Part shown: positions 6,619 through 64,000 of the stretch, piece by piece
Numbering within the stretch: position 1 is the stretch's first letter
Layout: each line of letters opens with the position of its first letter
Assembly: GCF_020745735.1 (NCBI RefSeq)
Contig: NC_083407.1
Location: 87,721,857 to 87,785,856 of the forward strand
Direction of reading: 5' to 3'
Length of the DNA: 64,000 nucleotides
Origin: Hemiscyllium ocellatum
Taxonomy: Eukaryota
Made by a program: the position numbers and the translations under genes
The notes under the pieces: model-generated
Seen by the model: the letters and a program-made list of their open reading frames with translations, nothing else
What the model was told of the DNA's origin: nothing
Databases searched by the model: none

Positions 6619-6995
6619 TTAAAAATCACACAACAGCAGGTTATAGTACAATAGATTTAATTGGAAGCACACTAGCTTTCGGAGCGACGCTCCTTCATCA
6701 AGTGATAATGGAGGGCTCAATCCTAACACAGAATTTATAGCAAAAATTTACAGTGTGATGTAACTGAAATTATACATTGAAAAACTAATTGCCTGTTTTT
6801 CAATGTATAATTTCAGTTACATCACACTGTAAATCCTTGCTATAAATTCTGTGTTAGGATTGAGCCCTCCATTATCACCTGCTGAAGGAGCGTCGCTCCG
6901 AAAGCTAGTGTGCTTCCAATTACACCTGTTGGACTATAACCTGGTGTTGTGTGATTTTTAACTTTGTACACCCCAGTCCAACACCGGCATCTCCA
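6619..6995 (+). mobile_element. Second Penelope-derived foldback family; ~167-bp inverted arms, each with a hammerhead remnant
   Basis: Arms 6619-6785 and 6795-6961, 9-bp loop. CAC-CTG(C)TGA-A-GGAGC(GTC)GCTCC-GAAA-GCTA-GTG at 6876-6910 with its mirror at 6670-6704. Near-TSD AGTCTT(C/T)ATCA at 6606 and 7000. Confidence 0.82.
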
Positions 6996-7067: not shown

Positions 7068-8785
7068 ATATAGAACATTACAGCATAGTACAGGCTCTTT
7101 GGCCCTCGATTTTGCATCGATCTGTGAAACAAATCTGAAGCCCATTTAACCTACACTATTCCATTCTCATCCATATACCTATCTAATGACCATTTAAATG
7201 CCCTTAAAGTTGGCGAGTCTATCACCCCCTTGATTTAAAGCTATGTCCCCTCATGCTAACCACTGTCATCCGAGGAAAGAAAGGCTCTCATTGTCCACCC
7301 TATCTAACCCTCTGATTATCTTATATGTATCAATTAAGTCACCTCTTAACCTTCTTCCCTCTAACGAAAACAGCCTCAAGTCCCTCAGCCTTTCTTTGTA
7401 AGACCTTCCCTCCATACCAGGCAACACCCTAGTTAATCATCTCTGAACCCTTTCCAAAGCTTCCATATCCTTCCTATAATGTGACAACCAAAACTGTCCG
7501 CAATACTCCAAGTGTGGCTGCACCAGAGTTTTGTCCATGTGCAGCATGACCTCATGGTTCCGAAACTCAATGCCTCTACCAATAAAAGCTAAAACACCAT
7601 ATGCCTTCTTAACAACCCTATCAACGTGGGTGGCAACTTTCAAGGAACTGTGTTCATGGACACAGAAATCTCTCTGCTCATTTACACTACCAAGAAGCTT
7701 ACAATTCGTTCAGTACTCCGCATTTCTGTTACTCCTTCCAAAGTGAATCACCTCACACTTTTCTGCATTAAACTCCATTTGCCACCTCTCGGCCCAGCTC
7801 TGCAGCTTATCTATGTCCCTCTGTAACTTACAACAGCCTTCGTCACTATCCACAACTCTACCGGCTTTAGTGTCATCCGCAAATTTACTAACCCATCCTT
7901 CAATGCCCTCATCCAGGTCATTTATAAAAATGGCAAACAGGAGTGGACCCAAAATAGATGACCTGTAATTGAACTCCAGGATGAATATTTCCCATCAATC
8001 ACCACCCTCTGTCTTCTTTCAGCTAGCCAATTTCTGATCCAAACTGCTAAATCGCCCTCAATGCCATGCCTCCATGTTCCGTGCAATAGCCTAAAGTGGG
8101 GAACTTATTTTATGCTTGCTGAAATCCATATTCACCACATCAACTGCTTTACCCTCTTTCACCTGCTTGGTCAAAGAACTTAATAAGGTTTGTGAGGCAA
8201 TGACCATTCACAGAACCATGTTGACTATCTAATCAACTGATTCCTGAAGAAGGGCCTATGCCCAAAACGTCGATTCTCCTGCTCCTTTGATGCTGCCTGA
8301 CCTGCTACGCTTTTCCAGCAACACATTTTTCAGCTCTGAGTTCCAGCATCTGCAGTCCTCACTTTCTCCTAATCTTACTCTTGTCATTCTTTTATTTTAT
8401 TTCTGACACCCCTATAGAAAGCTGTAGGATTTTCCTTCATCCTATCCGCCAATGTCTTCTCATGTCCCCTCATGGTTCTTCTTAGAGCTCTTTCCTGGTT
8501 AACTTGTAACTCTCAAGCGCCCTAAATGAGTCATCACATCTCATCCTAACATAAGCCTTTTTCTTCCTCTTGACAAGAGATTCAGCTTCATTGGTAAACC
8601 ACGGCTCCCGCTATCGACAACTTCCTGCCTGCCTGACAGGTGCATAGTTATCAAGGATCCGCAGTAGCTGTTCCTTGAATAAGCTCCACGTTTCAATTGT
8701 GCCCATTATCTGCAGTCTTCCTCCCCATCCTATGCTTCTTAAATCTTGCCTAATAGCTTCGAAATTGCCTTTCCCCTAGCTTTAA
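7068..8785 (-). mobile_element. CR1 LINE, second subfamily, RT fragment with deletions
   Basis: GPLLFAIFINDLDEGIEGWVSKFADDTK; QPHLEYCGQFW. Confidence 0.9.
8240..8369 (+). mobile_element. Penelope-derived short element, monomer; hammerhead GAAA mutated to AAAA
   Basis: ATTCCTGAAGAAGGGCCTATGCCCAAAACGTCGATTC...; same family as 13241 and 63839. Confidence 0.8.
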
Positions 8786-9300: not shown

Positions 9301-10028
9301 AGTCATAGAGATGTTCAGCATGGAAACAGACCCTTCAGTCCAAACCGTCACCCCTCAGCCTCCGACGCTCCAGGGAAAAAGCCCCGGCCTGTTCAGCCTC
9401 TCCCTACAGTTCAAATGCTCCATTTCTGGAAACATCCTTGTAAATCTTTTCTGAACCCTTTCAAGTTTCAAAACATCTTTCTAACTGGAAGGAGACTAGA
9501 CCACTACTGGAATATTGCGCGCAATTCTGGTCTTCTTCCTATCGGGAAGAGGTTATGAAACTTGAAAGGGTTCAGAAAAGATTTACAAGGATGTTGCCAG
9601 GGTTGGACCATTTGAGCTATAGGGAGAGCTGAACAAGCTGGGGCTGTTTTCCCTGGAGAGTTGGAGGCTGAGGAATGGCCTTATAGAGGTTTACAAAATT
9701 ATGAAGGGCATGGATATGATAAATAGACAAAATCTTTTCCCTGGGGTGGGGAAGTCCAGAACTAGAAGGCATAGGTTTAGGGTGAGTGGAAAAAGATATA
9801 AAAGAGACCTAAGGAGCAACGTTTTGACACAGAGGGTGGTATGTGTATGGAATAAGCTGCCAGAGGAAGTGGTGGAGGCTGGTACAATTGTAACATTTGA
9901 AAGGCATCTGGATGAGTATATGAATAGGAAGGGTTTGGAGGGATATGGGCCAGGTGCTGGCAGATGGGACTAGATTGGGTTGGGATATCTGATCAGCATG
10001 GACAGGTTGGACCAAGGGGTTTGTTTCC
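9301..10028 (+). mobile_element. CR1 3' fragment with an inverted 5' part (9301-9500)
   Basis: ORF 9701-9973 is the CR1 C-terminus; the upstream segment is minus-oriented CR1. Confidence 0.85.
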
Positions 10029-10917
10029 GTGCTGTACATCTCTATGCCTTTAAGTAATCAAGAATTTTCCAAAATACGTAACACTGTCATTTTTCTTTAT
10101 AAATGGACTGTTCTTCAATGAGTCTTTCCATTATTTGGTTAGATGGCAGCTCATAATAAAAAAAGGTGCTAACAGAATGATGGATGCCTGGAAATAATTA
10201 GCAAGCAGGATTGGTCTAAGTAATTCATAATGAAATCATTGATAGCAAATCTTCATTCAAATTATCTATGACATTTAAATTGGAACATCAACCTCATATT
10301 CCTTTGCATTTACCGTTAGCTATCAGAATTGTTACTCTGTCTTAATCTGAATTGTTATCAATGTTTACAGAGCAAGTAGTATACTTTCATTTTAAAATAT
10401 AATTTATTGCTACACACGTACCTTGTTGAATATGATATGACTGGAATGAACCTGTTGTGTAGATCTGTAAACAGCTTAGAAATGAAACTTGCAAATTTGC
10501 AACAGATTCCAAGCGAAATTTGATTTTACACAACTGACTTTTCAAGAAAAAATATAATTATGCTAAGGTCAGAATGGAAACTTTATATAAAGTATATCTG
10601 TCGTTCAGTGGATGCATATTGCTATAAAATGAACGTGTGTACACAATCATCTTCAGATGACAATTAATAATCTTTTTAGCACCATTTTCCTTTGCTGAAG
10701 GTACAGAAAATCAGGTGAGCATGTCATTATGCAGGTATGTGTGTGTCTGTATAACTTATGTGGGATTTCAAAAACTTAAGTGCGGGCAGTCAAATAGCCA
10801 AATAAGACATCGTGGCTTTGCATCAGCAGAAAGTACTGGAGTCGAGACTTGACAAAAGTCACCTGTCAGCGAGTTAACTTTTTATTAGTTTTCGTTTTGC
10901 TAATGGTCATAACTCAC

Positions 10918-11033
10918 GCGTCCAGTCTTATTTTTTTCAGTGCCACCATCTCTCCTGTGACTTTATTCATTGCTTTGTAGACCACTCCATATGTACCCTC
11001 ACCGATCTTCTCCACTTTCTGGAAGTTGTCCAT
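10918..11033 (-). CDS. CDK2: CDK2/CDK3-type cyclin-dependent kinase, first coding exon (116 bp); remainder presumably left of the window
   Basis: Minus strand translates to [38 protein letters not shown](A), with the GEGTYG loop and VALK lysine. It ends in phase 2 at a GTGAGT donor (10917-10912). 116 bp matches the CDK2 exon 1 coding length as I recall it. CDK2 versus CDK3 or another paralog cannot be settled from 39 codons. Confidence 0.88.
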
Positions 11034-11330
11034 GATTCCGCCGCTCTCACCACCGGAATTCAAGCTACCGTCACCGTTGTTGTTGTTGTCAACAACGGCG
11101 AGAATCGACCGCCAACGCGCGATGCTCGCGCCCTACCATCCGAATCCCAACTGCCACTCTCCCTCCCGCGCGCGCTACTAATCTGCCCGGAGACACTCGC
11201 ATTTTCCCGCCCATTCGCCGCACAACGCGCAATCTATTGGCTCGTTGTGACGCCAACGTGGTAACGCCATCAAGGTCCCCATCATTTTGAAGTTCGCACT
11301 GTCCCAGCGTCCGGCCTCGTATCAGAAGTT
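11034..11330 (-). promoter_or_regulatory. CpG-rich promoter/5'UTR of the CDK gene
   Basis: CpG-dense segment. E2F-type TTTCCCGC at 11203-11210, CCAAT box (ATTGG on +) at 11236-11240 and CRE-like TGACGCCA at 11248-11255, typical of cell-cycle gene promoters. Confidence 0.7.
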
Positions 11331-13240
11331 GGTTAAGGGCAAGTACGGTTTTGGTAAATTAATGAATTTGTACAGTCCGACTAAAATAAAATCTCTATCC
11401 AGGAACCCTCAAAATATTTAAGATCAATTTAGACGAACAGCTGAAATGTCATAAACATGTGATGCTGCGGGCGAAATGCTGGAAGGTGGAAACAGAGTAC
11501 GCGTATATTTGGTGAGCGCTTATGTAGGGATGAAGGAACTCTTGACATACTGCAAAAAAAATCAGTATTGGAAATAGGAGAATAACATCTCTGAACAAAG
11601 TGGTAGAAAACTACATTTCTTTTTAAAAAGTGTTAAAAGTTCCTGGAACACATCCACATCCACAAAACAACGGCTAACGGGTGCTAGAGTTCTGAAACAA
11701 AGACAGAAACTCAGCAGGTCTGGCAGTATCTGTGGGAAGAAAGCAAAGTTACACTTTTGAGTCTAGTGATACTTCATCAGATGAAGAGGTTAGCGAGCGC
11801 AAGCATGAATGCATGAAGTGTTCAGAACACGAACAATAGAGTATAATATATAGACCAGAGGGCATTGGAAGGGTCCTGCCTAGAGGTAACATAGGTACAG
11901 AAAAAACTTTCGACAGATGAGTTGAGGCAAGGTTACACTCGGATGTTAGGGTGGTAGAAAATAGGCAGACCTTAGTGATATCCCAAACGTGTTTATAATA
12001 TGGTTTTCAGACAAATGACAGGGAGAGAAGTGAAGTTTATAACTAGGGTGTGGCTTCGGTTTTTCCTTGCCAATGTTCAACTGGAAGGAAGTTTTTGCTT
12101 ATCCAATAATACAAAGGATATTGCATGACCCATCTTAAACAGCTGGATGCAATAAAAAACCCTGGATTTAAATTAGGATATTCCCAAACTGGATTATTCC
12201 TCTACACTAGTTAGGCCAGATTACCTGTCTCCTATATTATAACAGTAACCGTACTTAGAAAAAGTACTTCATTCACTATAACATATTTTGGGATGGCTTG
12301 GCATCATGAAAGAGGCGATTCAGATGCAGAATCTTTCCTTTGTAAACATGTCTGTTTCAGTTTATTTGAAGATGATTGTACAAATGAAAGTTTGTTTAAA
12401 TTGGGACAAGATAATTACATTATTTTTAAGGGTAAATTCTAGCATTTTAAAAATCTTCATTTTTAGGCATTATAATTGCACAAGATTGGAATTTAATAGA
12501 CAGTAATAAGCATCTGTCATAAAAGTCTAAAAAAAATTTCTAAAGTTTTCCATTGACCAATTCTGAATAAAAAAATCAAAAACTGCAGGCAGCAGTACAA
12601 AACCCATCACTGAAGACAATTTCAGATTACCAATTACACAATGTAACTTGAAACTGCCAGGTTTTCAGCTATAAGACATGATGGGATTATATAGTTGCAG
12701 GCACACCTAGCCTTTGGCTGTTGGGTGCCAAATTTTGAATGTTGATTCTACCCCCCAACAATAAATCTATTTAACTCTATGTACAATCCAAATCTGGTCA
12801 GTGACAGAATCAAAACTTCCACACCTGGTAATTAAATTTCAACAAGAAAACTCCTTCAAAGAAAAAAAAGAGCTGTCCACCAACACAATGGCAATAGTTT
12901 GGAAATTCTCCGCAAAGTTGCAGAACAAAATATGCATTGTAGCAATTGCATGGTTGGTATTGCAATCATTTTGATGAAAGAAGTGAATTCTCTGAATGCA
13001 AGCACACAAAATTACATCTCTATCAAATTTTAGTTCACGTTTTTCTCTCATTCTTTCACAGTTCAATTCCATTCCACTCTGCAAAGTGATGTCAACAGAA
13101 AATCAAACTTTCATTATACCTGTATACACTATCTACATGTTTGAGAATAGCTTGACTGATACAAAAAAGTAAAGCAAATGAGATTCCCTCTTTCCTGGAA
13201 TTTCCCTGCTTCATTCTGGTGTCAGATAAGCCTCAACAGT

Positions 13241-13472
13241 GTCTGAAAATGTGTTGCTGGAAAAGCGCAGCAGGTCAGGCAGCATCCAAGGAGCAGGAGA
13301 ATTGACAGTTCGGGCATGAACCCTTCTTCATTCCTGAAGGGCTTCCTGAAGAAGGGCTCATACCCGAACCGTCAATTCTCCTGCTCCTTCGATGCTGCCT
13401 GACCTGCTGTGCTTTTCCAGCAACACATTTTCCAGCTCTGTATCTCCAGCATCTGCAGTCCTCACCTTCTCC
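13241..13472 (+). mobile_element. Penelope-derived short foldback element with degenerate hammerhead
   Basis: Inverted arms meet at a CTGAAGA...GAAC-CGTC motif; 13-bp TSD AAGCCTCAACAGT at 13228-13240 and 13473-13485. Confidence 0.85.
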
Positions 13473-17764: not shown

Positions 17765-18677
17765 GTTTGTAGCTCAGGTTGAGGTTTAGGGTGTAGATTT
17801 GCTTGCTGAGCCATAGGTTTGATATCCAGACATTTCATTACCTGGCTAGGTTAGTTTTTGTTTGAGAGTGTTGGTGGGTTTGTGTGCTACTAGAATTCCG
17901 AGGGGTCTCAGTAGCCTGGCTGTCATTTCTGAAACTTCTTCGATATATGGTAACTGCGCACTGCGTTTTTTGAGTATCCGTTCTTCTTGAAAAAAAACAG
18001 TGCGCAGATTCCTCAAGAACAAACCACGACAAGCAGACAAAACACAGCCAGAAACCCTAACCACCTTACTATATATCAAAGAAGTTTCAGAAATGACAGC
18101 CAGGCTACTGAGACCCCTCGGAATCCTAGTAGCACACAAGCCCACCAACACTCAAACAAAAACTAACAAACTTAAAAGACCCAGTACAATCCATGGACAA
18201 AACCAACGTCATCTATAAAATTCCATGCAAGGACTGCCACAAACACTACGTATGACAAACAGGAAGTTAACCACCAGGATACATGAACACCAGTTAGCCA
18301 CAAAAAGACACAACCCCCTCTCCCTCATAGCCCTACACACAGATGAAAAAAACCACCATTTCGACTGGGACAACACATCTATCCTGGGACAGGCTAAGCA
18401 AAGACATGCCAGAGAATTCCTAGAGGCCTGGCACTCCAACCACAATGCCATAAAGAAGCACATAGATCTAAATGCCATCTATCAATCCCTCAGAAAATGA
18501 ACAGGAAATGACATCATCACAAACCCCAGGAACCCCATCCACAAGAAAGATACAAATAGAAAGCAGGAGACAACAGCTTCGCTTCACTTGGAGGTCGCCA
18601 CTGATGATGTTACCTAGCCAGGTAATGAAACGTCTGGATATCAAACCTACAGCTCAGTGAGCAAACCTACTCCCTAA
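17765..18677 (+). mobile_element. 5'-truncated Penelope-like retroelement with GIY-YIG endonuclease, 3' hammerhead and inverted 5' segment
   Basis: NVIYKIPCKDC..HYV..RKLTTRIHEH...HFDWDNTSILG...REFLEAWHS (frameshifted). 17784-17950 is the reverse complement of 18610-18677 and 18070-18165. 13-bp TSD AGTTTAATTGAAG at 17752-17764 and 18678-18690. Confidence 0.93.
18598..18637 (+). ncRNA. Minimal type I hammerhead ribozyme motif of the Penelope element
   Basis: CCA-CTGATGA-T-GTTACCT(AGCC)AGGTAAT-GAAA-CGTC-TGG: conserved core, stem II, palindromic ACGT in place of stem III, GUC cleavage triplet. Confidence 0.75.
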
Positions 18678-25165: not shown

Positions 25166-26551
25166 AACATCTTACAACTACATGACTACCTTTGTTTTCA
25201 CGTACAAAAAAGAAATCAGAGCTTGAACCTCATTGTAGGTTACGAGTACGAGAAGCCCAGAACTGGAAGCAATGCAACACCGCATTTTCTACCAGCGCAT
25301 GACGATTGGTGCTTTAAGTGGATATTCAACCTTCCTCCCTCATTTTTGCCAGATCTCAATAGGTCAAGACAATGCTACAATGTAATGAAGCATCACATCT
25401 CAAAAAGGTGGAATATGGCGTGCAGAAGATATTCGCTAGATGTCAATTATCAGTACCATTACAAACACAATAGAAAACATTTGTGGTTCAGAATTCCTGT
25501 AACTCAAGCAGACAATTGAGTTTGGTGGCATTTTTAGGGAGGAGCAGGAATTAAAAACATATTTCAGAACAACTGGTCAGATTGTTATTTTAGTATATTG
25601 ATAGGCTGGTATATAAAAATATCAATTGTTATGACCTCTGATGATATTATTACAATGCAAGTTATAATCCCCAGACTGAAATCTGGTTTGATAGATCATG
25701 TTTATTGTTTTAACAACATAGTCTTTCCCTGAAACACAAATCACACAATGCTGTAGTTTCAGGTTTAACAATAAAACAGAAGTTTTAGAAATTAAGAACA
25801 ATAGAATGATCCAAACTATCATGAAATGAAGATTTTGGACACAGGAAAACAATTCCATTAATGTCAACAACACTTCTTTACAGTACTTAAACCAGAGAGA
25901 ATTTCCTTCTCTTTGAAATCTAGAGATTAAATTTAACTTTGGCTTCAATTTCAGGTCTTGAGAATTGGACAGTTTTTTTTTTCTGGAGCCCTCACACAAT
26001 TGAGCTAAGCCTCTCAGTTTCACATAACTCTTCAGGGTTTTAAGTAAATACATCTGGTGTGGAGTCTTTCAACTAAATTCCATATGCTCAGGTAACCATT
26101 TTGTAAATAGTCCCAAAACTACCTCCCTTTCTAAGGTACAGCTTCAACACTGCAGCAAACTCAAACTAAAATTTACTTTTTCCCTTCAAGCTATGTGTAT
26201 TTCCCTAACCAAAAAAAAACAAACCCCAACCTTCTAAACGGAACCCATGCACAACAGTTGACTTTGTTTGTTTGTAAACTTTCCCAATGTAACATCCAAT
26301 TACTCTCCAAGAAGGCTCTCTAAAAATATTTAAAAGAAATCACAATGGCTGCAGAAATACAAGTTAACTAAGCCTTTTCAGTCACACAAACCTATGTGAT
26401 ATTCGTTAATAACTCAAAATTCCAAAAAGAAATATCAAAATCTACAAATCACACACCTTACATCACTTAAGCAAATAGTAAAAACTATAAAAGAGGTGAA
26501 GAACTGGAAGTGTAAACATTTGACTTTTTTCTGTCAAATTGGATCTGAATT

Positions 26552-27209
26552 TGTTATAAGTGATTTCTGTCTAGGCTTTCTGAATCTCTGGAGAATAGTT
26601 CCTGACACTTGGCTAACTATTCTAACTCTAGGGATCTGATTCAGAACAACCGGGTCCTGCCTCCGAACTCTGCCAACCGCGGACTGTCCTTTAACCCTTG
26701 TATCAAGGGAGACTGTCCGCAAGGTTAAGTTCAAAAAGGCGAACTCCAAGTTGACTGGAATCGACCCTTATCCCCACCGGCTATCACTTCTCCCGTGGCA
26801 AATCGAAATACTGCGAGACACACACAGACGGAGCAACAGATGTTTATTCAATCTTCGAAGATTGGGCGAGTTCCAAAAAGGACTTCGGAAATCGCCCAAT
26901 CTTCGAAGATTGAATAAACATCTGTTGCTCCGTCTGTGTGTGTCTCGCAGTATTTCGATTTGCCACGGGAGAAGTGATAGCCGGTGGGGATAAGGGTCGA
27001 TTCCAGTCAACTTGGAGTTCGCCTTTTTGAACTTAACCTTGCGGACAGTCTCCCTTGATACAAGGGTCAAAGGACAGTCCGCGGTTGGCAGAGTTCGGAG
27101 GCAGGACCCGGTTGTTCTGAATCAGATCCCTAGAGTTAGAATAGTTAGCCAAGTGTCAGGAACTATTCTCCGGAGATTCAGAAAGCCTAGACAGAAATCA
27201 CTTATAACA
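26552..27209. mobile_element. 658-bp palindromic (foldback) element with TGTTA...TAACA termini and AATT target duplication
   Basis: Arms 26552-26869 and 26892-27209 (318 bp) are reverse complements with 2 mismatches (26589/27172 and 26693/27068); 22-bp spacer; AATT at 26548-26551 and 27210-27213. Confidence 0.85.
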
Positions 27210-28557
27210 AATTCAACCTCTTAGACAAAATAGTTTCCATTAATCCATTGTTAATCAGGTGATGATTCCTTTCTGTGGTGCCATCTTTACTGGAGCAAGT
27301 AAATGTAATCTGTAATTTTGGTTTATTATTGACTTTGGTTGGCAAGGGGGGAGAAAGGGGAACATATTCATAAATGATGGGCAAGTGGAGAAGGAAATCA
27401 AGAGTGGGCCAGTCATCACATAAAAGATTGTTATGCCAGAAAGAGCATGACCACTTGTACTGAGTTTTAATAAAAGCAAAAACCTGACTTTTATCTCTGT
27501 CGTGAAATAGCTACTTTAATCTTAATTGGTTAGGCAGAGGACAAACATATACTGTCCATTTTCCACCAATTTCTCTTATGAAATTTCTAACTGGGGATTT
27601 ACAATGAACGTTGAAATCAATTTGCATCTTTGAACAGTCACCCAGTTGTCTGAAGCAGAAATGGTAGGATATACTTAAAGACCTGTAAGGTGAGGGGTAA
27701 AAAGGGGGGACAAAAAAAAAGAGGATCCTCAAACTGGTTTAGCTGATTGTAATTTTTCTGAAAAGTAGAATTATATCCCCTCTGCTACATTAGCTGCGTG
27801 ACCACATTGAACCCTTGAATTCATGCCTAAGCTAATCTGTTCACCATGAAAGCCATCAACCACTTCAAATGTTGTTAACTCAGCTAGAAACAGATCTTTT
27901 GCTTGGATAACAGCAACACTTGGTGTCAAATTTATATTTGTTTATATAAGAGTTTAGTCATATATTGTCTTTAACAAGTAAAATATGTAAAAGCATGCCA
28001 CAGAGTAGAAATAGATACCGAAACTACAAGAGGTGACCTATAAGGATAGTTGGGAAATAAGGAGTTTTGGAAGCAAAGAAAAGTAGTATGGCAAAACATT
28101 AAGGCAGGGAACACTAGAAAATAATCAAGGCAAGATCAACATAGCCCTATGACACTAAGGGCTAAAGACAAAGGGGCTGACAACTGCTGGCAGATAACCA
28201 GATTGAAGTGAGCCAGAAGATTAAGGCAAAAACAAACTATAGTTGATTTGTTAATTCAGTACATGAAGGAAGCAAACAAAGTCACGATGGGCACAGAAAC
28301 AAGCAAGCAGAATGTCATTTGGGAGGTTAAATAGAGAATTCATGAGAGATAAAGATTTCTAAAACAGAATGGGTAAAAGTACAAGTGATTAAAGTTGTGC
28401 AGTCGTGCAGGGTGTTTTGGTAACAAACAGGCTATGGGGTGGAATCTGAGCTCCCCTGGGTTATAAACTATCAGGTTTTACCTAGCATTGCAGCCGGAGA
28501 AAACAAAGTTTATTTTGTGAAAGTGACTACTGTCTCCAATATTAGATTGGAGGAGCA

Positions 28558-41384: not shown

Positions 41385-42632
41385 GAGGTTCCACATGGTA
41401 GACCAGTTAATAAAGGTTAGATCACATAGGATCCAGGGGAGGTTAACCATTGGGTACCAATTGACTTGAAGGTAGTAGACAGAGGGTGGTGGTACACGAT
41501 TGCTTTTTGGACTGGAGGCTCAATGCTGTGTCCAGTTTTTTGTCAATTATATAATTGGTTTGGATGTGAATATAGGAGACATGTTTAGTAAGTTTGCAGA
41601 TGACATGAAAATTCTCAGTGTAGTGGACAGTGAAAAAAGATTATCTCAAAGGACAACAGGATCTTGATCAGAGAGAGGTCAGTAGGCTGAGGAGTGGCAG
41701 ATAGATCTAAATTTAGATAAGTGAGAGATGTTGCATTATCATAAGGCAAACCAAGGCAGGATGGTTGATGGCAGGGCCTTGGGGAGTGTTGCCAAACAAA
41801 GAGACCTGGAGCGCAGGTGCATAGTTCCTTAAAAGTGACGCTGCAGGTAGACATGGTGGCGAAGACGGCATTTAGCACTTACCTTCATTGGTCAGAGGGT
41901 CGAGTATAGGAGTTGGGATGTCATGTTGCGGCCATATAGGACATTGGTGTGGCCACTTTTAGAATATGGAGTTCAGTTCCCGTCACCCTGCTATAGGAAG
42001 GGCATTGGTAAACTTGAGTGGGTGTAGAAAAGATCTACAACAACGTTGCCGGATTTGGAGGATTTGAGCCATAGGGAAAGGCTGACTTTTTTCCCTGAAA
42101 TGTCAGAGGCTGAGGGATAACCTTATAGAGGTTTATAAAATCCAGAGGGGCACGGATAGGGTGAACAGGCAAGGTCCTTTCCACAGGGTGGGGAATCCAA
42201 AGCTAGAGGACATTAGTTTAAGGTGAGAGGGGAAGGATTTAAAAGGAACCAAAAGAAGGGGTATCTTTTTCAGGTAGAGGGTGGTTTGTGCATGGAATGA
42301 TCTGCGGGGGGAGCGGTGGAGGCTGGTACAATCACAATATTTAAAAGGCATCTGGATGGGTATATGAATATCCATTAGCCACATTTTGTGTGCTTATTAG
42401 GAGCATGATCTAATGTTAATTTGAAGATACCAGCCACAATTTCAAACTCCAAATTGAAATGGCAAGAATAATCTTAAATCCTGTTTTTTGATTTGATGTG
42501 CTGTTTATGAATAGGAAAAGTTTAGAGGAATATGGCTCAAATGCTGGCAAATGGGGACTAGCTCAGATTGGGGTGTTTGGTTGACATATAAAGTTGGACC
42601 GAAGGGTCTGTTTCCATGCTGTATGGCTCTAT
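41385..42632 (+). mobile_element. CR1 RT/3' fragment carrying a templated inverted insertion
   Basis: KFADD region at ~41590; CR1 tail at 42530-42632. Confidence 0.85.
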
Positions 42633-42881
42633 GGGATTTGTTGGAGACATGATGATCATAAAATGACAACTGTACCAATTAAAGTCGTTTATGACTGGGT
42701 GTGGCAAGAGGAAGAAAACTTTAACTTTTCTCGGGGAAGGAAACAGCACATCAAATCAAAAAACAGGATTTAAGATTATTCTTGCCATTTCAATTTGGAG
42801 TTTGAAATTGTGGCTGGTATCTTCAAATTAACATTAGATCATGCTCCTAATAAGCACACAAAATGTTGCTAATGGATATTC
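42366..42881. repeat. 141-bp inverted repeat (42366-42506 / 42741-42881)
   Basis: 140 of 141 positions complementary; 234-bp spacer. Confidence 0.95.
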
Positions 42882-49290: not shown

Positions 49291-49504
49291 ATAGCGAAGG
49301 ACAATAATTCTGGAGAGAAGTTAATTTGATACCGAGTTTCGTTCTGAGGTCAGAATTAAACATTGTTTATTAATTTCACAAAGGAACAGCCTTGAATGTT
49401 ATCACATGTGAGGACCAAGCAATTAAAAAGAAGCAGAATACTGCAATGTGGATATAGAATTAAACAGAAAATGTTGGGAAGGTAAAACTTAGCAAGTAAG
49501 ACCG

Positions 49505-50203
49505 TATTATGAAGATGTGGGTGAACCATATCTTTTAAGAGAATTAAAAGCTAGCAGTGACAGCACCAAATGTTCACAATAAGGCACAATGTAACATATG
49601 CTCCAGCTACAGGAGTAGCTGGTTGCCTGGAAATGACAAAAAACAGATTTGAATTTGCCCAATCAGTTTAAATTATTCCCCGGAAAAATACCGATTTCCA
49701 ATCAAGTTTGAATTGAGTATATTGACAATCTTAAAAGCCAATGACACAATCTGATGTTCTGGGGTATAAGATCAGGAACAAATTGAACAGTTGGGAGGAG
49801 AACTGCCAAGCATCAATGATTAAAAGAATGCCTGAAAAAAAAGCTGTCTTAAAAGTACCTTTTTTGACCTGTGAAGCAGAATCCCCAAGAAGAAGAAAAG
49901 AAGGTCCAAATAGAAGAACCGAAAGCTGCCTGGTTTTGAGATAAGAAGTGTTGTCTTGTAAATCTTAATTGGAGTTTTATCAGATTTGTATTGTAGAAGG
50001 AAAGGTAAAAAATAGATTAGAGTAAGGATTTGTACATAGTTGTTAGTTAATTATTCTATGTTATACATTAAGAAATAAAGTTGTTAATTTTTACTTTAAA
50101 TACTTCTTGGCCACTCAAATTTTTACAGATTACTGCTCGGGATAAATCTTTTCTGTGTTGGTGGTTTTAAACTAAGCAGGAGAGTTTACCCCATGATGTA
50201 ACA
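49505..50203 (+). repeat. 5' LTR of the Gypsy element
   Basis: TATTATGAAGAT...GTAACA; colinear with 57755-58444. Confidence 0.9.
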
Positions 50204-51809
50204 GTTTGGGGTCTCGGGTTCGTAATCTGAACTGGTTAAGTCAGATTTGAATAGATTTGGGGGTACAAAAATTCATAAGATTTAAACACTTGCAGGTTAA
50301 TGTCCTAGATCTTTAAATACAACATAGGTAAGACAATTTGTTTGATTTCAGTGACTTGTAGTTGATTAAATTAAAAGTGAGAGAAATGGCTCGTTAAATT
50401 GCTTAAGGGGTTCAGGGATTTGAAGATGATTCTCAAATTTGCCAGGGAAGTTTAGAAGGAAAGAAAAGGCCATACTTTTATAATTAGCAAATAAGTTAGA
50501 TTTGGGTTTAACCAAGAAAAAAAGCAAAGCTGAAATTGTAAAGGGGTTACTCAAACACTTAGTTGTGTCAGAGAAACAGACAAGTGCAGTAGAGGTAGAA
50601 AAACTTAAATTACAATTGAGGAAAATGGAGTTAGAAGATAGAGAGAAAGGGAATGAGAAAGAGAGAGAGAGAGAGAGGAAAAGAGAGAGAAGGTTTTTAG
50701 CTAAGCAAAGAGAGAGAAGAAAGGGAGAGACAAAAAGACAGAGAATGTGAACTTGAGAAGTTGTGACTTTTAGTTAACAAAGTCAAGTTAACAGGATAAA
50801 AAGAAGGTAGTAATATATAAAAATATGTCAAAACTCTGCACATTTTGATCAGAAAGATGTTGAAGCCTTCTGTATTTTATTTGAAAGATTGGCTAGGCAG
50901 ATGGAGTGGTGCAAGGATTTATGGGTACTGCTAGTTCAGACTAAACTGGTAAGCAGAGCTAGTGAGGTATTTGCCGCACTGTCAGATGAGGGGTCAAGAG
51001 ATTATGAAGAGGTTAAACAGGCTATTTTAAGTGCTTATGAATTGGTACCAGAAGCATATTGACAGCGGTTCAGAAACACAAAAAAGGAACCAGGTTACAC
51101 TTCAAAAGAATTAAACATAGTCATTTTGATTGATGGGTTTGAGGCATTAAGAGCAATTATTCTGCTGAAGGAGTTTAAAAACTCACTTCCAGAGAAGATT
51201 AAAAACTCACGTAGAGGAACAGGAAGTTCAGGAAATGAGAAGGGCAGCAGAATTAGCAGATCAGTACATGTTGGTGTATAAGACAAGCTTCCAGCCAGAA
51301 CTTCGTCCTGTGAGAGATAGAAGTTGGGAGAAGGGGAGATCTTACACTACTAAACCAAGAGGAGAGAGCATTGGTAAGAGTTTACAACAGGATAAAAAAG
51401 AAGCCTGAGAGGGCAGAAAGGAGGTGAAAGGCCTCCGGTGTTTCCACTGTGGTAAAGTGGGAAATATAAAATCACAGTGCTAGTTATTAAAGAAAGGCAC
51501 TGTGGGAAATATTGTAAAAGAAGCAAAGCCAGTGGCACTAGTGAAGGAAGTAAAAGAGACCCCAAGAAGAGCCAAAGACCTGTAGGAGAGAGCACAGCCT
51601 TGGCAGGGGCTGCGTATGGAGTTAGTACCTGATCTCTACAAAGAATTCACCTCTGTGGGTAAAGTTTACTCAGAAAGAACAAAGGGAGAAGGACAAGAAG
51701 TTATAATTTTGAGAGATACAGATCTAACCAGTCCCTGATAGTAAGGGATGAGCGAATATGCACTCTTTTTGATGTGTTACCCGAGAGTGTGGGAGAGATG
51801 GACAGAAAT

Positions 51810-54800
51810 TGATGCCAGGATCAAGGATGTCTCGGAGAGGGTGCAGAATGTTCTCAAGGGGAAGAGGGAACAGCAGGAGGTCATAGTACACATTGGAACC
51901 AATGGCATAGGAAAAGGATGAGATTCTGAAGAGAGAATATAGAGAGTTAGGCAGGAGTTTAAAAAGGAGGTCCTCGAGGCTAGAAATATATGGATTAATC
52001 CAGGTGCTGCGAGCTAGTGAAGGTAGGAATAGGAGGATAGAGCAGATGAATGCATGACTGAGGAGATGGTATATGGGGGAAGGATTCACATTTTGGATCA
52101 TTGGAAACTCCTGGGTAGAAGTGACCTGTACAAGAATGACAGATTGCAATTGAATTAGAAGGGGACTGATATACTGACAGGGAGATTTGTTAGAGCTGCT
52201 CAGGAGGATTTAAATTGTTAAGGTGTGGGGTAGGACCCAGGGAGATAGTGAGGAAAGAGATCAATCTGAGACTGGTACAGTTGAGAAAAGAAGCGAATCA
52301 GTCAGGGCAGGCAGGGACAAAGCAGAAAACAAGGCAGGATGATAAATTAAACTGCATTTATTTCAATGTAAAACGCCTAACGGGGGAGGCAGAAGAACTC
52401 AGGGCAGGGTTAGAAACATAGGACTGGGATATCGTAACAATTACAGAAATGTGGCTCAGGGATGGACAGGACTGGCAGCTTAATGTTCCAGGATAAAAAA
52501 TGCTACAGGAAGGACAGAAGAAGAAGCAAGAGAGGAGGGGGAGTGGTGTTTTTGATAAGGGATAATATTACAGCTGTACTGAGGGAGGATATTGGAAGTT
52601 ATTTGGGTGGAACTGAGAAATAACAAAGGGCTGATCACCTTATTGGGATCGTACTATAGTCAGACCCCTAATGCTCAGAGGGAAATTGAGAAACAAATTT
52701 GTAAGGAGATCTCAGTTGTCTGTAAGAATAATACGATGGTTATGGTCGGAGATTTTAACTTTCCAAACATAGATCGGGATTGCCATAGTGTTAAGGGTTT
52801 AGATGGAGAGGAATTTGTTAAGCATGTACAAGAAAATTTTCTGATTCAATATGTGGATGTACCTATTAGAGAAGGTGCAAAACTTGACCTATTCTTGGGA
52901 AATAAGGTAGGGCAGGTGGCTGAGATGTCAGTGGGGGATCACTTTGAGCCTGACCATAATTCTATTAGTTTTAAAACAGTGATGGAAAAGGATAGTTCAG
53001 ATCAAAAATTGGGGGAAGGCTAATTTTGACAGTATTAGGCAAGAACTTTCAAAAACTGATTGGGGGCAGATGTTCGCAGGTAAACAGACGGCTGGAAAAT
53101 GCGAAGCCTTCAGAAATTAGATAACGAGAGTCCAGAGACAGTATATTTCTGTTAGGTTGAAAAGGAAGGCTGGTAAGTGTAGGGAATGCTGGATGACTAA
53201 AGAAATTGAGGGTTTGGTTAAGAAAAAAAAAGGAAGCATATGACAAGTATAGACAAGAGAGATCAAATGAATCCTTAGAAGAGTGTAAAGGCAGTTGGAG
53301 TATACTCAAGAGTGAAATCAGGAGGGCAAAAAGGGAACATGAGATAGCTTTGGCAAATAGAGTTAAGGAAATCCAATGGGTTTTTATAAATACATTAAGG
53401 ACAAAAGGGTAACAAGGGAGAGAATAGGGCCCTCAAAGATCAGCAAAGCCACCTTTTTGTGGAGCCGGAGAGATGTGGGAGATACTAAACAAGTATTTTG
53501 CTTCAGTGTTTACTGTGGAAGAGGACATGGAAAATATAGAATGTAGGGAACAAGATGGTGACATTTTGAAAAAAATGTCTATATTACAGAGCAGGTATTG
53601 CTGGATGTCTTGAAACACATGAAAGTGGATAAATCCCCAGGACCAGATCAGGTGTACCCTAGAACTCTGTGAGAAGCTAGGGAAGTGATTGCTGCGATAT
53701 TTGTCAGAGGTAGTCATCAATAGTCACAGGTAAGGTGCCGGAAGACTGGACGTTGGTTAACATGGTGCACTGTTTAAGAAGGGTGGTAAGGACAAGCCAG
53801 GGAACTATAGACCAGTGAGCCTGACGTCAGTGGTGGGCAAGTTGTTGGAGGGAATCCTGAGGGACAGGATGTACATGTATTTGGAAAGGCAAGGACTGAT
53901 TCGGGATATTCAACATGGCTTTGTGAGTGGAAAATCATGTCTCACAAACTTGATTGAGTTTTTTTAAAGAAGTAACAAAGAATATTGAAGAGGGCAGAGT
54001 GGTAGACGTGATCGATATGGACTTCAGGAAGGCATTTGACAAAGTTCCCCATGGGAGACTGGTTAGAAAAGTTAGAGCTTACGGAATACAGGGAGAACTA
54101 GCCATTTGGATACAGAACTGGTTCAAAGGTAGAAGACAGAGGGTGGCGGTGGAGGATTTGTTTTTCAGACTGAAGGCCTGTGACCAGTGGAGTGACACAA
54201 GGATCGGTGCTGGATCCGCTACTTTTTGTCATTTATATAAGTGATTTGGATGTGAGCATAAGAGATATAGTTATTAAGTTTGCAGATGACACCAAAATTG
54301 GAGGTGTAGAGGACTGCAAAGAAGGTTTCCTCAGATTACAATGGGATCTTGATCAGATGGGCCAATGGGCTGAGAACTGGCAGATGGAGTTTAATTTATT
54401 AATATATTAATCTATTTAATTTTTAATCTATTTTCAGGCAGCTCAAAATCCTCATCATCTGGATTTGATTCCGCACTCTGCAGGGCAGTAACAAACACCT
54501 GTTTCTCCAGTCCTTTCTCTCAAGAATAACATGGTTTCAACATGTTCACATGACATACTCAATACCTTTCTTTTCTATCTGGTATCTTGACTAAATAGTT
54601 CACCTGACTCAACTTTATCTCAGTTAGATAGGGACCACTATACCTGACTTTGAAGGGTTCTCTAATCACTGGTAACAGTACTAACATGTTATCCCCTCAG
54701 GAAAATGTCCCAGTCTCAGAGTTTTTATCTGCCACCTGCTTTTTTCTATACTGTGCCCTCTTTAGGTGCTGTTTAGCTAGCTCACCTACTCGGTTAAATC

Positions 54801-55820
54801 TCTCATTGAGACATAGAGATGTACAGCATGGAAACAGACCCTTTGGTCCAACTTGTCCATGCTGACCAGATATCCCAACCCAATCTAGTCCCACCAGCCA
54901 GCGTCTGGCCCGAATCCCTCCAAACCCTTCCTAGTTAAATACCCATTCAGATGCCTTTTAAATGTTGCAATTGTACTAGCCTCCACTACTTCTTCTGGTG
55001 GCTCATTCCACACACATACCATTTAGATAAATGTGAGGTGCTGCATTTTAGGAAAGCAAATTTTACCAGGACTTATACACGTAATGGTAAGGTCCTAGGG
55101 AGTGTTGCTGAACAAAGAGACCTTGGAGTGCAGGTTCGTAGCTCCTTGAAAGTAGAATTGCAGGTAAATAGGATAGTGAAGAAGGCATTTGGTATGCTTC
55201 TGTTATTGGTCAGTGTATTGAGTACAGGAGTTGGGAGGTCATGTTGTGGCTGTACAGGACATTGGTTAGGCCATTTTTGGAATATTGCGTGCAATTCTAG
55301 TCTTCTTCCTATCGGAAGGATGCTGTGAAACTTGAAAGGGTTCAGAAAAGATTTACAAGGATGTTGCCAGGGTTGGAGGATTTGAGCTGTATGGAGAGGT
55401 TGAATAGGCTGGGCTGTTTTCCTTGGAGCTTCGGATGCTGAGGGGTGACCTTATAGAGGTTTATAAAATCAAGAAGGGCATGGGATAGGGTAAATAGACA
55501 AGGTCTCTTCCTTGGGGCGGTGGAGTCCAGAACAAGAGGGCATAGGTTTAGTGTGAAAGGGGAAAGATATAAAAGAGACCCAAGGGCAACTTTTTCAGGC
55601 ATAGCATGGTATGTGTGTATGGAATGAGCTGCCAGAGGAAGTGGTGGAGGCTGGTACGTTTGCAACATTTAAAAGGCATCTGGATGGGTTTCTGAATAGG
55701 AAGGATTTGGAGGAATATGGGCCGGGTGCTGGCAGGTGGCACTAGATTGGGTTGGGATATCTGGTCAGCATGGACGAGTTAGACTAAAGGGTCTGTTTCC
55801 ATGCTGTACATCTCTATGAC
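51810..55820 (+). mobile_element. CR1/HER1-type LINE nested in the Gypsy element (ORF1 esterase end, APE, RT, 3' tail), interrupted by an inverted duplication at ~54400-55020
   Basis: VIVHIG esterase motif (~51880), APE VGDFNFPNID, RT DFRKAFDKVPH / QGSVLDP / KFADDTK; many stops and frameshifts. Confidence 0.92.
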
Positions 55821-56212
55821 TCAATGAGAGATTTAACCTAGTAGGTGAGTTAGTTAAACAGCATTTAAAGAGGGCACAGTATAGAAAAAAAGCAGGTGGC
55901 AGATAAAAACTCTGAGACTGGGACATTTTCCTGAGGGGATAACATGTTAATACTGTTACCAATGATTAGAGAACCCTTCAAAGCCAGGTATAGTTGTCCC
56001 TATCTAACTGAGATAAAGTTAAGTCAGGTGAACTATTTAGTCAAGATGCCAGATAGAAAAGAAAGGTATTGAGTATGTCATGTGAACATGTTGAAACCAT
56101 ATTATGCTTGAAAGAAAGAACTGGAGGAACAGATGTTTCTCACTGTCCTGCAGAGTGTGGAATCAAATCCAGATAATGTGGATTTTGAATTGCCTGAAAA
56201 TAGATTTAAAAA
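54420..56212. repeat. ~600-bp inverted repeat (about 54420-55020 / 55607-56212)
   Basis: Both copies contain the same CR1-tail/Gypsy-integrase junction in opposite orientation. Confidence 0.92.
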
Positions 56213-57754
56213 ATAAAGAAGTCCTTGAGGAGTGGGATAGGTTAGTAAGCCACTGTCTCAGGAGAATAGAATGCAGTTGAAAGATTTGTTACTGCAGTAT
56301 AAGGACATATGTTAGAATTAGATGGGGAGGACTAATGCTGTTGTACATGAAGTAGATGTAGGAAATACTGTAACAACACCTCTATTGGCTTAATCCTTTC
56401 AAAGCCAGACAGGTCCAGATTAAGGTGGAGGCCATGCTTGATGAGGACATCATCGAACCAAGCCAGAGCGAGTGGTTTTCACCGATCATCTTAGTTCTAA
56501 ACTCGACAGGACTCAACGATTCTTGGTGGACTATTGTAAGGTCAACGCTGTTACAAAATCTGACTCATATCCAATTCCTAGATTAGAGGACTGTATCGAG
56601 AAAGTCGGACAAGCCAGTTACATCACCCAAGTTGGAATTAATGTGTGGTTACTAGCAGGTACCTTTATCAGAGTTGGCAAAAGAAGTTTCTGCATTTGTA
56701 ACCCCAGAAATGGGCTACATCAGTTTAAAGTGAATCCCTTTGGAATGAAGGACGCACCCGCCACATTCCAAAAACTTATGAAGAGAGTTCTGATTGGGTT
56801 AACAAACTGTGCAGTCTATTTGGACAATGTAGTGATCTTTAGTAAGTCCCGGAAAGATCACATGGTAAAGTTTGCAGAGCACAACTACAAGAAGCAAAAC
56901 TGGTGATAAACTTAAATAAGACGGAATTCGCGAAAGTAGAGGTGACATTTTTGGGACATAACATCGGTCATGGAAGGTTGACCCCATGGAACTCAAAGAC
57001 GAAGGCCATCGAGAAATTTCCATGACCAACCACGAAGAAAGAGATGCTTCAATTCTTAGGACTCAGCGGATTCTATTGGAAGCTTGTTCCAAACTTCAGC
57101 AGTGTAGTGGCACCATTAACCGATTTGCTGAAGAACACGAAGTTTCGGTTGACAGAACCATGCCAGGAGGCATTCGATGATTTGAAATCAATATTAATCA
57201 CCAAACCAGTTTTAGCTACACCAAACCTTTCAAAACATTCTAAAGTCGCCATCAATGCTAGTGACATAGCTGTATTCCTATAGGAAGATAAGGATGGGAT
57301 TGAACTGCCAGTTAGTTGCTTTTCAAAGATGATCAACATCCACCAGAAGAAATATTCCACAATCAAAAAGGAACTATTGAGTTTGGTACTGGCCGTACAA
57401 CATTTTTATGTGAATGTCACGAACAATGTGTCGGAGATGGTTGTACATAGATCACAATCCGCTTAAACTCTTAGAAAACTTTAAATACAAGAATATGAGT
57501 CTATTTCATTATGGTACAACTTTTAGTTTAATCATCATACATATTGTAGGTCAGAAGAATATAATCGCAGATGGGTTATCGCGGATTTAACTGATAGAGT
57601 TTATATGAGATTTTTCTTCATGTATATGAAAAGAAATTAAGGTGAACTTATGTTAAAAGTTATCTGTATGTTAGGGTATTGTGTTTAAAAAGTAGAGAAA
57701 AAAATGAAGCCATCTTTTCATTATGATGATTCATTTTTTTCTTAAGCGGGGAGG

Positions 57755-58444
57755 TGTTATGAAGATATGAGTGAAGTATTATACCTTTTATACTTTTTAA
57801 GAGAGTTAAAAGCTAGCAGTGTCAGCACTGGGTGTTCTCAATAAGACACAATGTAACATGTGCTCCAGCTACCAGAGTAGCTGGTTGCCTGGAAACGACA
57901 AAAAAATTCGAATTAGGCCAATCGGTTTAAATTATTCCCCTAAAAATATCAATTTCCAATCAAGTTTGAATTGAGTATATTGACAATCTTAAAAGTCAAT
58001 GTCACAATCGGTTGAGACTGGGGAAAAATTGAACACTTGGAAGAAGAGCTGCCAAGCCATGATGGGTAAAAGACAGCCTGAAAAAAAATCACTCTTTTAA
58101 AAGTACTGTTTTCAATCAGTAACTTGTGAAGCAGAATCCCTAAGAAAAGACACAGGAAGATCTAAATAGAACCAAAAGTTGCCTGGTTTTGAGGTAAGAA
58201 GTGTTGTTTTGTAAATCTTAATTGGGAGTTTTATCTGAATAGTATTGTGGAAGGGGAGGTAGGAGTAAGGACTTGTACATAGTTGTTAGTTAATCATTCT
58301 CTGTTATACTTTAAGAAATAAAGTTGTGAATTTTTACTTTAATTAGTCTTTGGCCAGTCGAATTTTTAGATTACTGCACGGGATAAATCTTTTCTATGTT
58401 GCTGGTTTTAAACTAAGCAGGAGAGTTTACCCCGTGTGGTAACA
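57755..58444 (+). repeat. 3' LTR of the Gypsy element
   Basis: TGTTATGAAGAT...GTAACA, preceded by PPT GCGGGGAGG; contains AATAAA near 58317. Confidence 0.9.
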
Positions 58445-63838: not shown

Positions 63839-64000
63839 CTGAAAATGTGTTGCTGGAAAAGCGCAGCAGGTCAGGCAACATCCAAGGAGCAGGAGATTCG
63901 ATGTTTTGGGCATTCCTGAAGAAGGGCTTATGCCCGAAACGTCGAATCTCCTGCTCCTTGGATGCTGCCTGACCTGCTGCGCTTTTCCAGCAACACATTT
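63839..64000 (+). mobile_element. Penelope-derived short foldback element in TBCCD1 intron (runs off the window end)
   Basis: Head-to-head inverted copies (63843-63913 versus 63930-64000) of the same family as 13241 and 8240. Confidence 0.8.
63912..63947 (+). ncRNA. Minimal hammerhead ribozyme motif with intact core
   Basis: ATTC-CTGAAGA-A-GGGC(TTAT)GCCC-GAAA-CGTC-GAAT: perfect stem I (ATTC/GAAT), stem II, CUGANGA and GAAA boxes, GUC triplet at 63941-63943. Confidence 0.8.

Follow-up and report, generated by a model that had tools for sequence, protein, structure and literature searches.

A fold-back junction in the Hemiscyllium ocellatum genome points to self-primed retroviral strong-stop DNA in the germ line

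A 64,000-nucleotide stretch of the Hemiscyllium ocellatum genome (contig NC_083407.1, positions 87,721,857 to 87,785,856, the whole of which is called the window below) contains at 26552-27209 an element of 658 bp that is almost entirely palindromic, and the locus raises the question of how a sequence resembling one end of a long terminal repeat (LTR) came to face its own inverted copy. The two arms (26552-26869 and 26892-27209) are 318 bp each, differ by only 2 mismatches (26589/27172 and 26693/27068) and flank a 22-bp centre that forms an imperfect hairpin. The element begins with TGTTA, ends with TAACA and lies between two copies of AATT, and the inverted repeat goes on for 6 bp outside it (TGAATT/AATTCA). 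Read outward, each arm carries AATAAA at +48 and a GT tract at +71 and finishes in TATAACA. The element holds 30 CpG dinucleotides at an observed/expected ratio of 0.82; in the adjoining 2-kb bins the ratio is 0.19 and 0.26. An initial annotation of the window had described the palindrome, its end motifs, the 4-bp repeat, the internal signals of each arm and the excess of CpG, and all of these are borne out by the sequence. It had left two explanations side by side: (a) a snap-back product of self-primed strong-stop DNA that integrated through two U5 ends, or (b) a non-autonomous, Ginger-like foldback family.

Could the palindrome instead be a fold-back artefact of library preparation or assembly? 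Contig support for it extends over the left junction, which leaves some room for this reading. However, the arms differ at 2 positions here and at 6 in a sibling copy (C111, described below), the sibling copies are bounded by unique flanks with matching duplications, and the left flank runs into the element on a single contig in each of two samples, which come from two studies of the same organism (one of them possibly the source of the window itself). We regard an artefact as extremely improbable.

The initial annotation had likened each arm to the R-U5 part of an LTR and had proposed a genome search with one arm. That search of the animal's own genome returned 862 candidates, of which 40 were scored, at 98-100% identity. 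At all 28 non-self loci examined, the stretch from 1 to 344 of the element aligns without a break to an LTR on its reverse strand, and the normal copies there run on into U3. Several of the matches form direct pairs 6-8 kb apart, and in normal copies the R-U5 ends are followed by a primer-binding site (PBS), which bears out the likeness and favours option (a). The 5' LTRs of this parent family end in TATAACA, followed by AATT and then by the PBS, and 194 exact junctions of this kind are present in the genome. One normal copy, L034, has LTRs of about 1.1 kb and stop-interrupted frames matching reverse transcriptase (RT), RNase H and the env family TLV_coat (E 1.2e-8); its RT is closest to the murine leukaemia virus (MLV) type (E 1.7e-46, against 1e-13 for foamy virus and 6e-12 for Ty3). 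Some LTR pairs of the family are identical in R-U5, as in a young family. Because all 28 loci continue into U3, the 5' LTRs end in TATAACA-AATT-PBS and the RT is of MLV type, each arm is, on alignment, the R-U5 of an LTR from a young, multi-copy, class I-like endogenous retrovirus (ERV), the class being assigned from the RT and env matches.

These matches also bear on option (b). A Ginger-like or miniature inverted-repeat (MITE-like) foldback family would share with the element its TG...CA ends, its 4-bp direct repeats and its long terminal inverted repeats. Nevertheless, the arms match direct-repeat LTR pairs with a U3 attached rather than the terminal inverted repeats of an integrase-type DNA transposon, and just one stand-alone palindrome was found among three matches to the junction, so that option (b) has to be given up as a very remote prospect. 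The annotation had further pointed to Gypsy LTRs in the window as having similar ends. Their TGTTAT starts and TAACA ends are indeed there (49397-50203 and 57755-58444), but they show no significant similarity to the arm, and Gypsy parentage was rejected since the RT is closest to the MLV type and env is present. Within the 64-kb window the arm matches nothing else significantly.

The junction at the centre of the palindrome proved to be the informative feature. Whether searched for as an inverted-pair pattern, as a pattern with up to 3 mismatches or by DNA search (3 full-length matches among the 40 scored), it occurs at three loci in total; the R hairpin itself has 256 exact matches in the genome. 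The other two loci, on contigs C14 and C111 of the same assembly (G000), are proviruses in which the 5' U3 is replaced by an inverted U5-R and the right arm leads into AATT, the PBS, leader, internal sequence and a 3' R-U5. In both, the inverted U5 end is trimmed at TG and lacks AATT, and the outer flanks are perfect 4-bp duplications (TTCA/TTCA for C14 and ATGG/ATGG for C111). Among 33 family units examined, the duplication was of 4 bp in 17 and of 5 bp in 2, none matched in 6, and the boundary was not found in 8. Since the inverted U5 is trimmed at TG and duplications of the family's length flank both copies, we conclude from their structure that C14 and C111 are proviruses integrated with U5 at both ends. 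They are 97% (C14) and 86% (C111) identical to the window copy, and both the hairpin alleles and the flanks differ among the three loci. Under the standard model the three would represent three separate events, because a provirus without a 5' U3 or promoter cannot pass its structure on by retrotransposition.

What, then, lies at the fold point? Of 80 normal 5' LTRs, 67 have a TATA box that starts 31 nt upstream of it and 4 have one at 30 nt; the other 9 showed no such motif. The left half of the palindrome spans the U5 end to the cap site predicted 31 nt behind the TATA box, and it thus matches what is defined as minus-strand strong-stop DNA, of which it is predicted to be the whole; the junction would in turn mark the probable cap site of the ancient virus. 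When the left half was folded as DNA by minimum energy, its last four bases paired with 26866-26869 (z -2.78 and -3.19), with a probability of 0.99 that the 3' base is paired. Extension from this terminal pairing would therefore give the bases observed after 26895, and the predicted hairpin register gives the observed junction at all three loci. In this model the 4-nt overlap places the true strong-stop end between +1 and +4. In RNA, the same region reads as a 5' hairpin, then a second hairpin, then AATAAA, a layout that resembles the TAR and poly(A) hairpins of HIV. Another fold register was sought with a pattern that sets the centre closer to the second hairpin; the single match has something other than LTR sequence inside, and this register was set aside. 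Among subfamilies the first hairpin is retained, and the second (L047-L126) varies on both sides yet stays palindromic, a pattern pointing to a conserved RNA structure.

These features are very probably explained if self-primed strong-stop DNA stood in for plus-strand strong-stop DNA during reverse transcription. In the series of steps that we propose, both packaged RNAs would be primed by tRNA (step 1). One strong-stop DNA would reach the cap, where its last bases would pair within the R hairpin, and RT would copy back over R, U5 and the tRNA 3' end to give a hairpin with a terminal PBS copy (step 2). The second strong-stop DNA would jump in the normal way and be extended into a long minus strand (step 3). 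The PBS of the hairpin would then anneal to the PBS of that minus strand in place of the usual plus strong-stop DNA, with displacement synthesis opening the hairpin (step 4), and the resulting linear DNA would be inserted by integrase through two U5 ends (step 5).

The same junction could in principle have been made after integration, if host replication or repair switched template at the R hairpin within a solo LTR or an ordinary provirus. Being an imperfect inverted repeat that offers 4 nt of exact microhomology, the hairpin would suit such a switch. But the host would have had to replace U3 precisely as far as the original duplication and to stop precisely at the processed U5 end three times independently, and no host DNA is duplicated. 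This explanation is accordingly rated as highly unlikely.

The self-priming model needs two priming events, and the 5' palindrome and the 3' LTR are therefore expected to come from different RNAs. In C14 the arms are identical over 306 bp and have in common the allele 39G, found in 0 of 69 young copies; the 3' LTR differs from them by 7 events, 5 of which are alleles common in the family. In C111, 15 events separate the left arm from the 3' LTR, and common alleles account for 6 of them. As a control, 13 normal proviruses whose duplications match gave between 0 and 7 events and 0-3 differences at common alleles; the two snap-back copies rank higher than any of these, by a small margin. Because the 5' arms agree with each other and yet differ from the 3' LTR at common alleles, this comparison suggests that both packaged RNAs were primed. 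Three points temper it: the controls overlap, one normal provirus having 7 R-U5 differences and one having 3 shared-allele differences; the control leaves out 12 of 25 LTR pairs (11 lacked a matched duplication or a boundary, 1 had an insertion), and 5 of these 12 had 5-7 differences; and gene conversion between inverted arms could mimic arm identity.

C14 carries, in addition, a deletion from pol into the 3' U3 (L039:7808-7809) that takes out env, the polypurine tract and the U3 end, and whose junction is single-copy in the genome. Should the deletion be older than the integration, the hairpin was the sole primer of the plus strand and also gave the second attachment end.

How often does this form arise? 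Among the exact 5' LTR-PBS matches it accounts for 2 of 194. Of the first 100 such sites listed, 80 were fetched, 10 belonged to loci analysed before (C14 and C111 among them) and 10 fell outside the sample; no inverted R-U5 was present at any of the 80 further 5' LTRs examined directly, nor at 12 loci fetched with a 16-nt PBS motif. Several of these results weigh against the self-priming account. Besides the 0 of 80, older subfamilies gave no match to the snap-back junction, a second LTR family with a similar two-hairpin R gave no match to the one pattern searched, and the cap site on which the strong-stop definition turns is predicted from TATA spacing only. Terminal pairing is weaker in the older subfamilies (median 0.885 vs 0.99); as a cause of where snap-backs occur this was set aside, the difference being too small and the events too few.

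The window copy poses a question of its own, since it has no provirus interior. We take it, with modest confidence, to be what a snap-back provirus left as a solo remnant, its two direct copies of R-U5 having recombined so that the interior was lost and the palindrome stayed behind (step 6). The complete chain, from the priming of both RNAs to this last step, we likewise hold to be probable but well short of secure. In favour of the solo step, the family's target profile places the window site, TGAATTCA, among the best 1.9% of the 8-mers in the window. The right arm alone carries an allele, 203C, that was seen in one close copy, L011, which is without three rare alleles common to both window arms; 203C could be recurrent, 18 of 167 A/T sites showing a transition in at least one young copy. 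Further evidence against a solo remnant comes from the AATT repeat, which is identical to the family's own U5-PBS spacer, with a chance match of a true duplication put at 0.35% (family profile) or 0.9% (background). This identity, which had gone unremarked in the initial annotation, makes the duplication ambiguous at the window locus.

The spacer identity is what would be seen if the same snap-back DNA had been captured at a chromosome break without integrase, so that AATT on both sides is unprocessed viral spacer and no coincidence is required. Such capture has a precedent in yeast, where strong-stop cDNA of Ty1 is captured at double-strand breaks and likewise ends up in chromosomes; there, however, no integrase is involved, single R-U5 pieces are found and no duplication is made, whereas two of the three cases here are trimmed and carry 4-bp duplications. 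That the flank alignment of a related organism (below) ends at 26545 and not at 26551 would also fit capture. On the other side, both sibling proviruses have a trimmed spacer and a duplication other than AATT, the letters that flank AATT, TG and CA, are those most often found at the family's target sites, and both ends would need a base-exact match. Capture is thus a less favoured route, unlikely but a serious competitor to the solo remnant.

Less probable again is a direct route, in which a second tRNA on the new 3' PBS copy made the hairpin double-stranded and integrase inserted the 0.66-kb U5-U5 palindrome as such, with no full provirus at any time. It would produce the same junction and end anatomy at a target site that fits the family profile, but it meets the same AATT coincidence, the other two known cases are full proviruses, and a right-arm allele shared with another copy would be unexpected (a weak point) if both arms came from one molecule. 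Option (a) of the initial annotation therefore stands in its essentials, namely an arm that is R-U5 as found ahead of a PBS, a fold 31 nt behind the TATA box and two proviruses with U5 ends, but the direct integration of a short palindrome that it pictured is judged less probable than a solo remnant. The solo, capture and direct routes all share a snap-back origin.

A related organism provided a comparison for the age of the insertion. Over 846 bases its flank contig shows 31 substitutions and 10 gaps, it extends about 1,960 letters beyond the site, and at 88% likeness its depth is zero in 7 of the 8 bins that lie wholly inside the left half of the element. Because depth is zero over most of this half, the insertion, and apparently the LTR family, would be younger than the split from that organism. 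However, the alignment stops at 26545, 6 bases before the element, in both runs, which leaves TGAATTCA a putative empty site, a further point against the solo remnant; no empty allele of the window site is present in the animal's own assembly. The features of the element are collected in Table 1.

Table 1. Features of the palindromic element, with positions counted from the first letter of the window
Feature	Position	Strand	Remarks
Left AATT	26548..26551	+	Probable integrase target-site duplication, yet the same letters form the 4-nt spacer between U5 and PBS in the family
Inverted complete R-U5 (+1 to +344) of the ERV LTR	26552..26895	-	Top strand is the predicted minus-strand strong-stop DNA; unbroken alignment, 97.4-99.1% to normal LTRs, 28/28 non-self loci
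Left U5 attachment end	26552..26558	-	Minus strand reads TATAACA; identical end in 5' LTRs ahead of AATT-PBS
5' hairpin of R, minus sense	26866..26895	+	Predicted site of self-priming, where GCGA at 26866-26869 pairs with the 3'-terminal TCGC
Fold-back junction, +1 joined to +31	26895..26896	+	Identical junction at G000 C14:77101174 and C111:35124681
Plus-sense R (+31) to U5 end	26896..27209	+	Putative self-primed copy; distal portion possibly from a former 3' LTR
Second R hairpin, 16-bp palindrome	26897..26912	+	Directly ahead of the poly(A) signal
AATAAA poly(A) signal	26913..26918	+	Mirror copy at 26843-26848
Right U5 attachment end, TATAACA	27203..27209	+	Seen in the sequence
Right AATT	27210..27213	+	Duplication or retained spacer

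Self-priming of this kind has a close counterpart in HIV-1. The strong-stop DNA of HIV-1 self-primes at cTAR in vitro, and a review calls the products dead ends for the first strand transfer, suppressed by nucleocapsid (PMC6088434). There, as here, a 3' hairpin of strong-stop DNA primes RT back over R and U5, and R carries two tandem hairpins before the poly(A) signal; the difference is that the HIV-1 reaction is described there in vitro only, whereas the present product appears to have been completed, integrated and inherited. The same review states that no self-primed products were detected in HIV-1 endogenous reactions (PMC6088434), which is to be added to the points against self-priming given above. 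The second strand transfer of HIV-1 can be intermolecular in heterozygous virions, as another report argues (PMC5651808). As proposed here, the two ends of one provirus then come from different packaged RNAs joined via the PBS; in the HIV-1 case an ordinary plus strong-stop DNA serves as donor and the LTRs are direct repeats of the normal kind, whereas here the donor would be a self-primed minus strong-stop hairpin.

Like a solo LTR, the window element derives from an LTR, sits between short direct repeats and is likely to be what direct-repeat recombination left behind, but it is a palindrome without U3 or promoter, made of two head-to-head R-U5 copies with two U5 ends; a canonical solo LTR, with one complete U3-R-U5, was rejected for that reason. 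HTLV-1 proviruses that lack the 5' LTR yet retain the target duplication are similar in being 5'-promoterless and formed before integration, but they are not known to have an inverted R-U5 at the 5' end. In maize, Mu killer is a DNA transposon with an inverted duplication of its 5' end and demonstrated silencing; the snap-back copies would share with it an inverted 5'-end duplication able to be read through into a long hairpin RNA. A full-text literature search by title and abstract start found no provirus in which an inverted R-U5 replaces the 5' U3, most older and subscription papers, a possible home of aberrant avian or murine clones, lying outside that search.

The snap-back copies are an unusual and new variety of aberrant provirus, present three times in one genome, in which a supposed dead-end intermediate appears to have completed replication and entered the germ line. 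Self-priming of minus strong-stop DNA has served to explain why nucleocapsid chaperone activity is important. Three independent germ-line fossils would show not only that the product forms in real infections and can be finished through the PBS but also that in vivo integrase accepted a pair of U5 ends and that priming took place on both RNAs packaged in a particle. We offer only tentatively the wider proposal that self-primed strong-stop DNA is a regular side route of retroviral replication in vivo, accounting here for about 1% of germ-line integrants; a light search beyond this family found no case. In that proposal the hairpin would take the place of plus strong-stop DNA, give a second U5 end and be able to rescue genomes that lack a polypurine tract, as C14 would if its deletion came before integration. 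Were this so, U5-U5 proviruses and palindromic solos should sit unrecognised in other ERV families and in proviral datasets of HIV and HTLV, and transcripts reading through the 318-bp inverted repeat could form hairpin RNA directed at R-U5 throughout the family. The signature is simple, an inverted repeat ending at CA directly upstream of the PBS, and lends itself to the screening of any genome or long-read set of proviruses; tools that require two direct-repeat LTRs would likely miss it.

Several further observations concern the parent family. In the part consulted of an account of cartilaginous-fish class I (epsilon-like) ERVs, CmiERV lineages II and III likewise have LTRs, a PBS, pol and env, no inverted ends are reported for them, and the present family differs in being young (PMC4422223). 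The U3 carries a long, variable, CA-rich simple-repeat tract (L034:1-540 and 8170-8556). In most proviruses the PBS has a 2-nt insertion relative to a shorter form, which is found in 12 of the first 100 listed and is used by other LTR families of the genome, and the bulged PBS is kept in old and young subfamilies. The PBS is tentatively assigned to tRNA-Pro, although confirmation from a tRNA gene failed, none of the 12 loci fetched with the 16-nt PBS motif being a tRNA gene and all 12 resembling the PBSs of LTR elements. On contig C19, two adjacent proviruses in opposite orientation (L025/L145 and L026/L144) have matched duplications and unusually diverged LTR pairs, with 14-15 differences in 250 bp of U3, perhaps from conversion or exchange.

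No host gene was found near the insertion site, and the candidate exons near the element are without a Pfam or PDB match. One possible exon, at about 27548-27686 on the minus strand and some 340 bp from the element, has a pyrimidine tract and AG before it and GT after it. Among the main data sets that carry the stretch there is no RNA data set. Elsewhere in the window, an old Gypsy-like element (49397-58444) has LTRs about 82% alike and an RT fragment (56445-56906), is apparently interrupted by sequence like a long interspersed nuclear element (LINE), and shows no matched duplication. A 141-bp inverted repeat (42366-42506 and 42741-42881) of 99% identity surrounds a 234-bp segment, and older repeats unrelated to the ERV LTR, 72-92% identical, form several more palindromic or inverted arrangements, at 1962-2581, 6619-6961, 13245-13432, 17850-18167, 54415-56217 and 63843-64000. 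A second CpG-rich stretch (10001-12000, observed/expected ratio 0.81), with TGTTAT at 10353, is possibly another young insertion.

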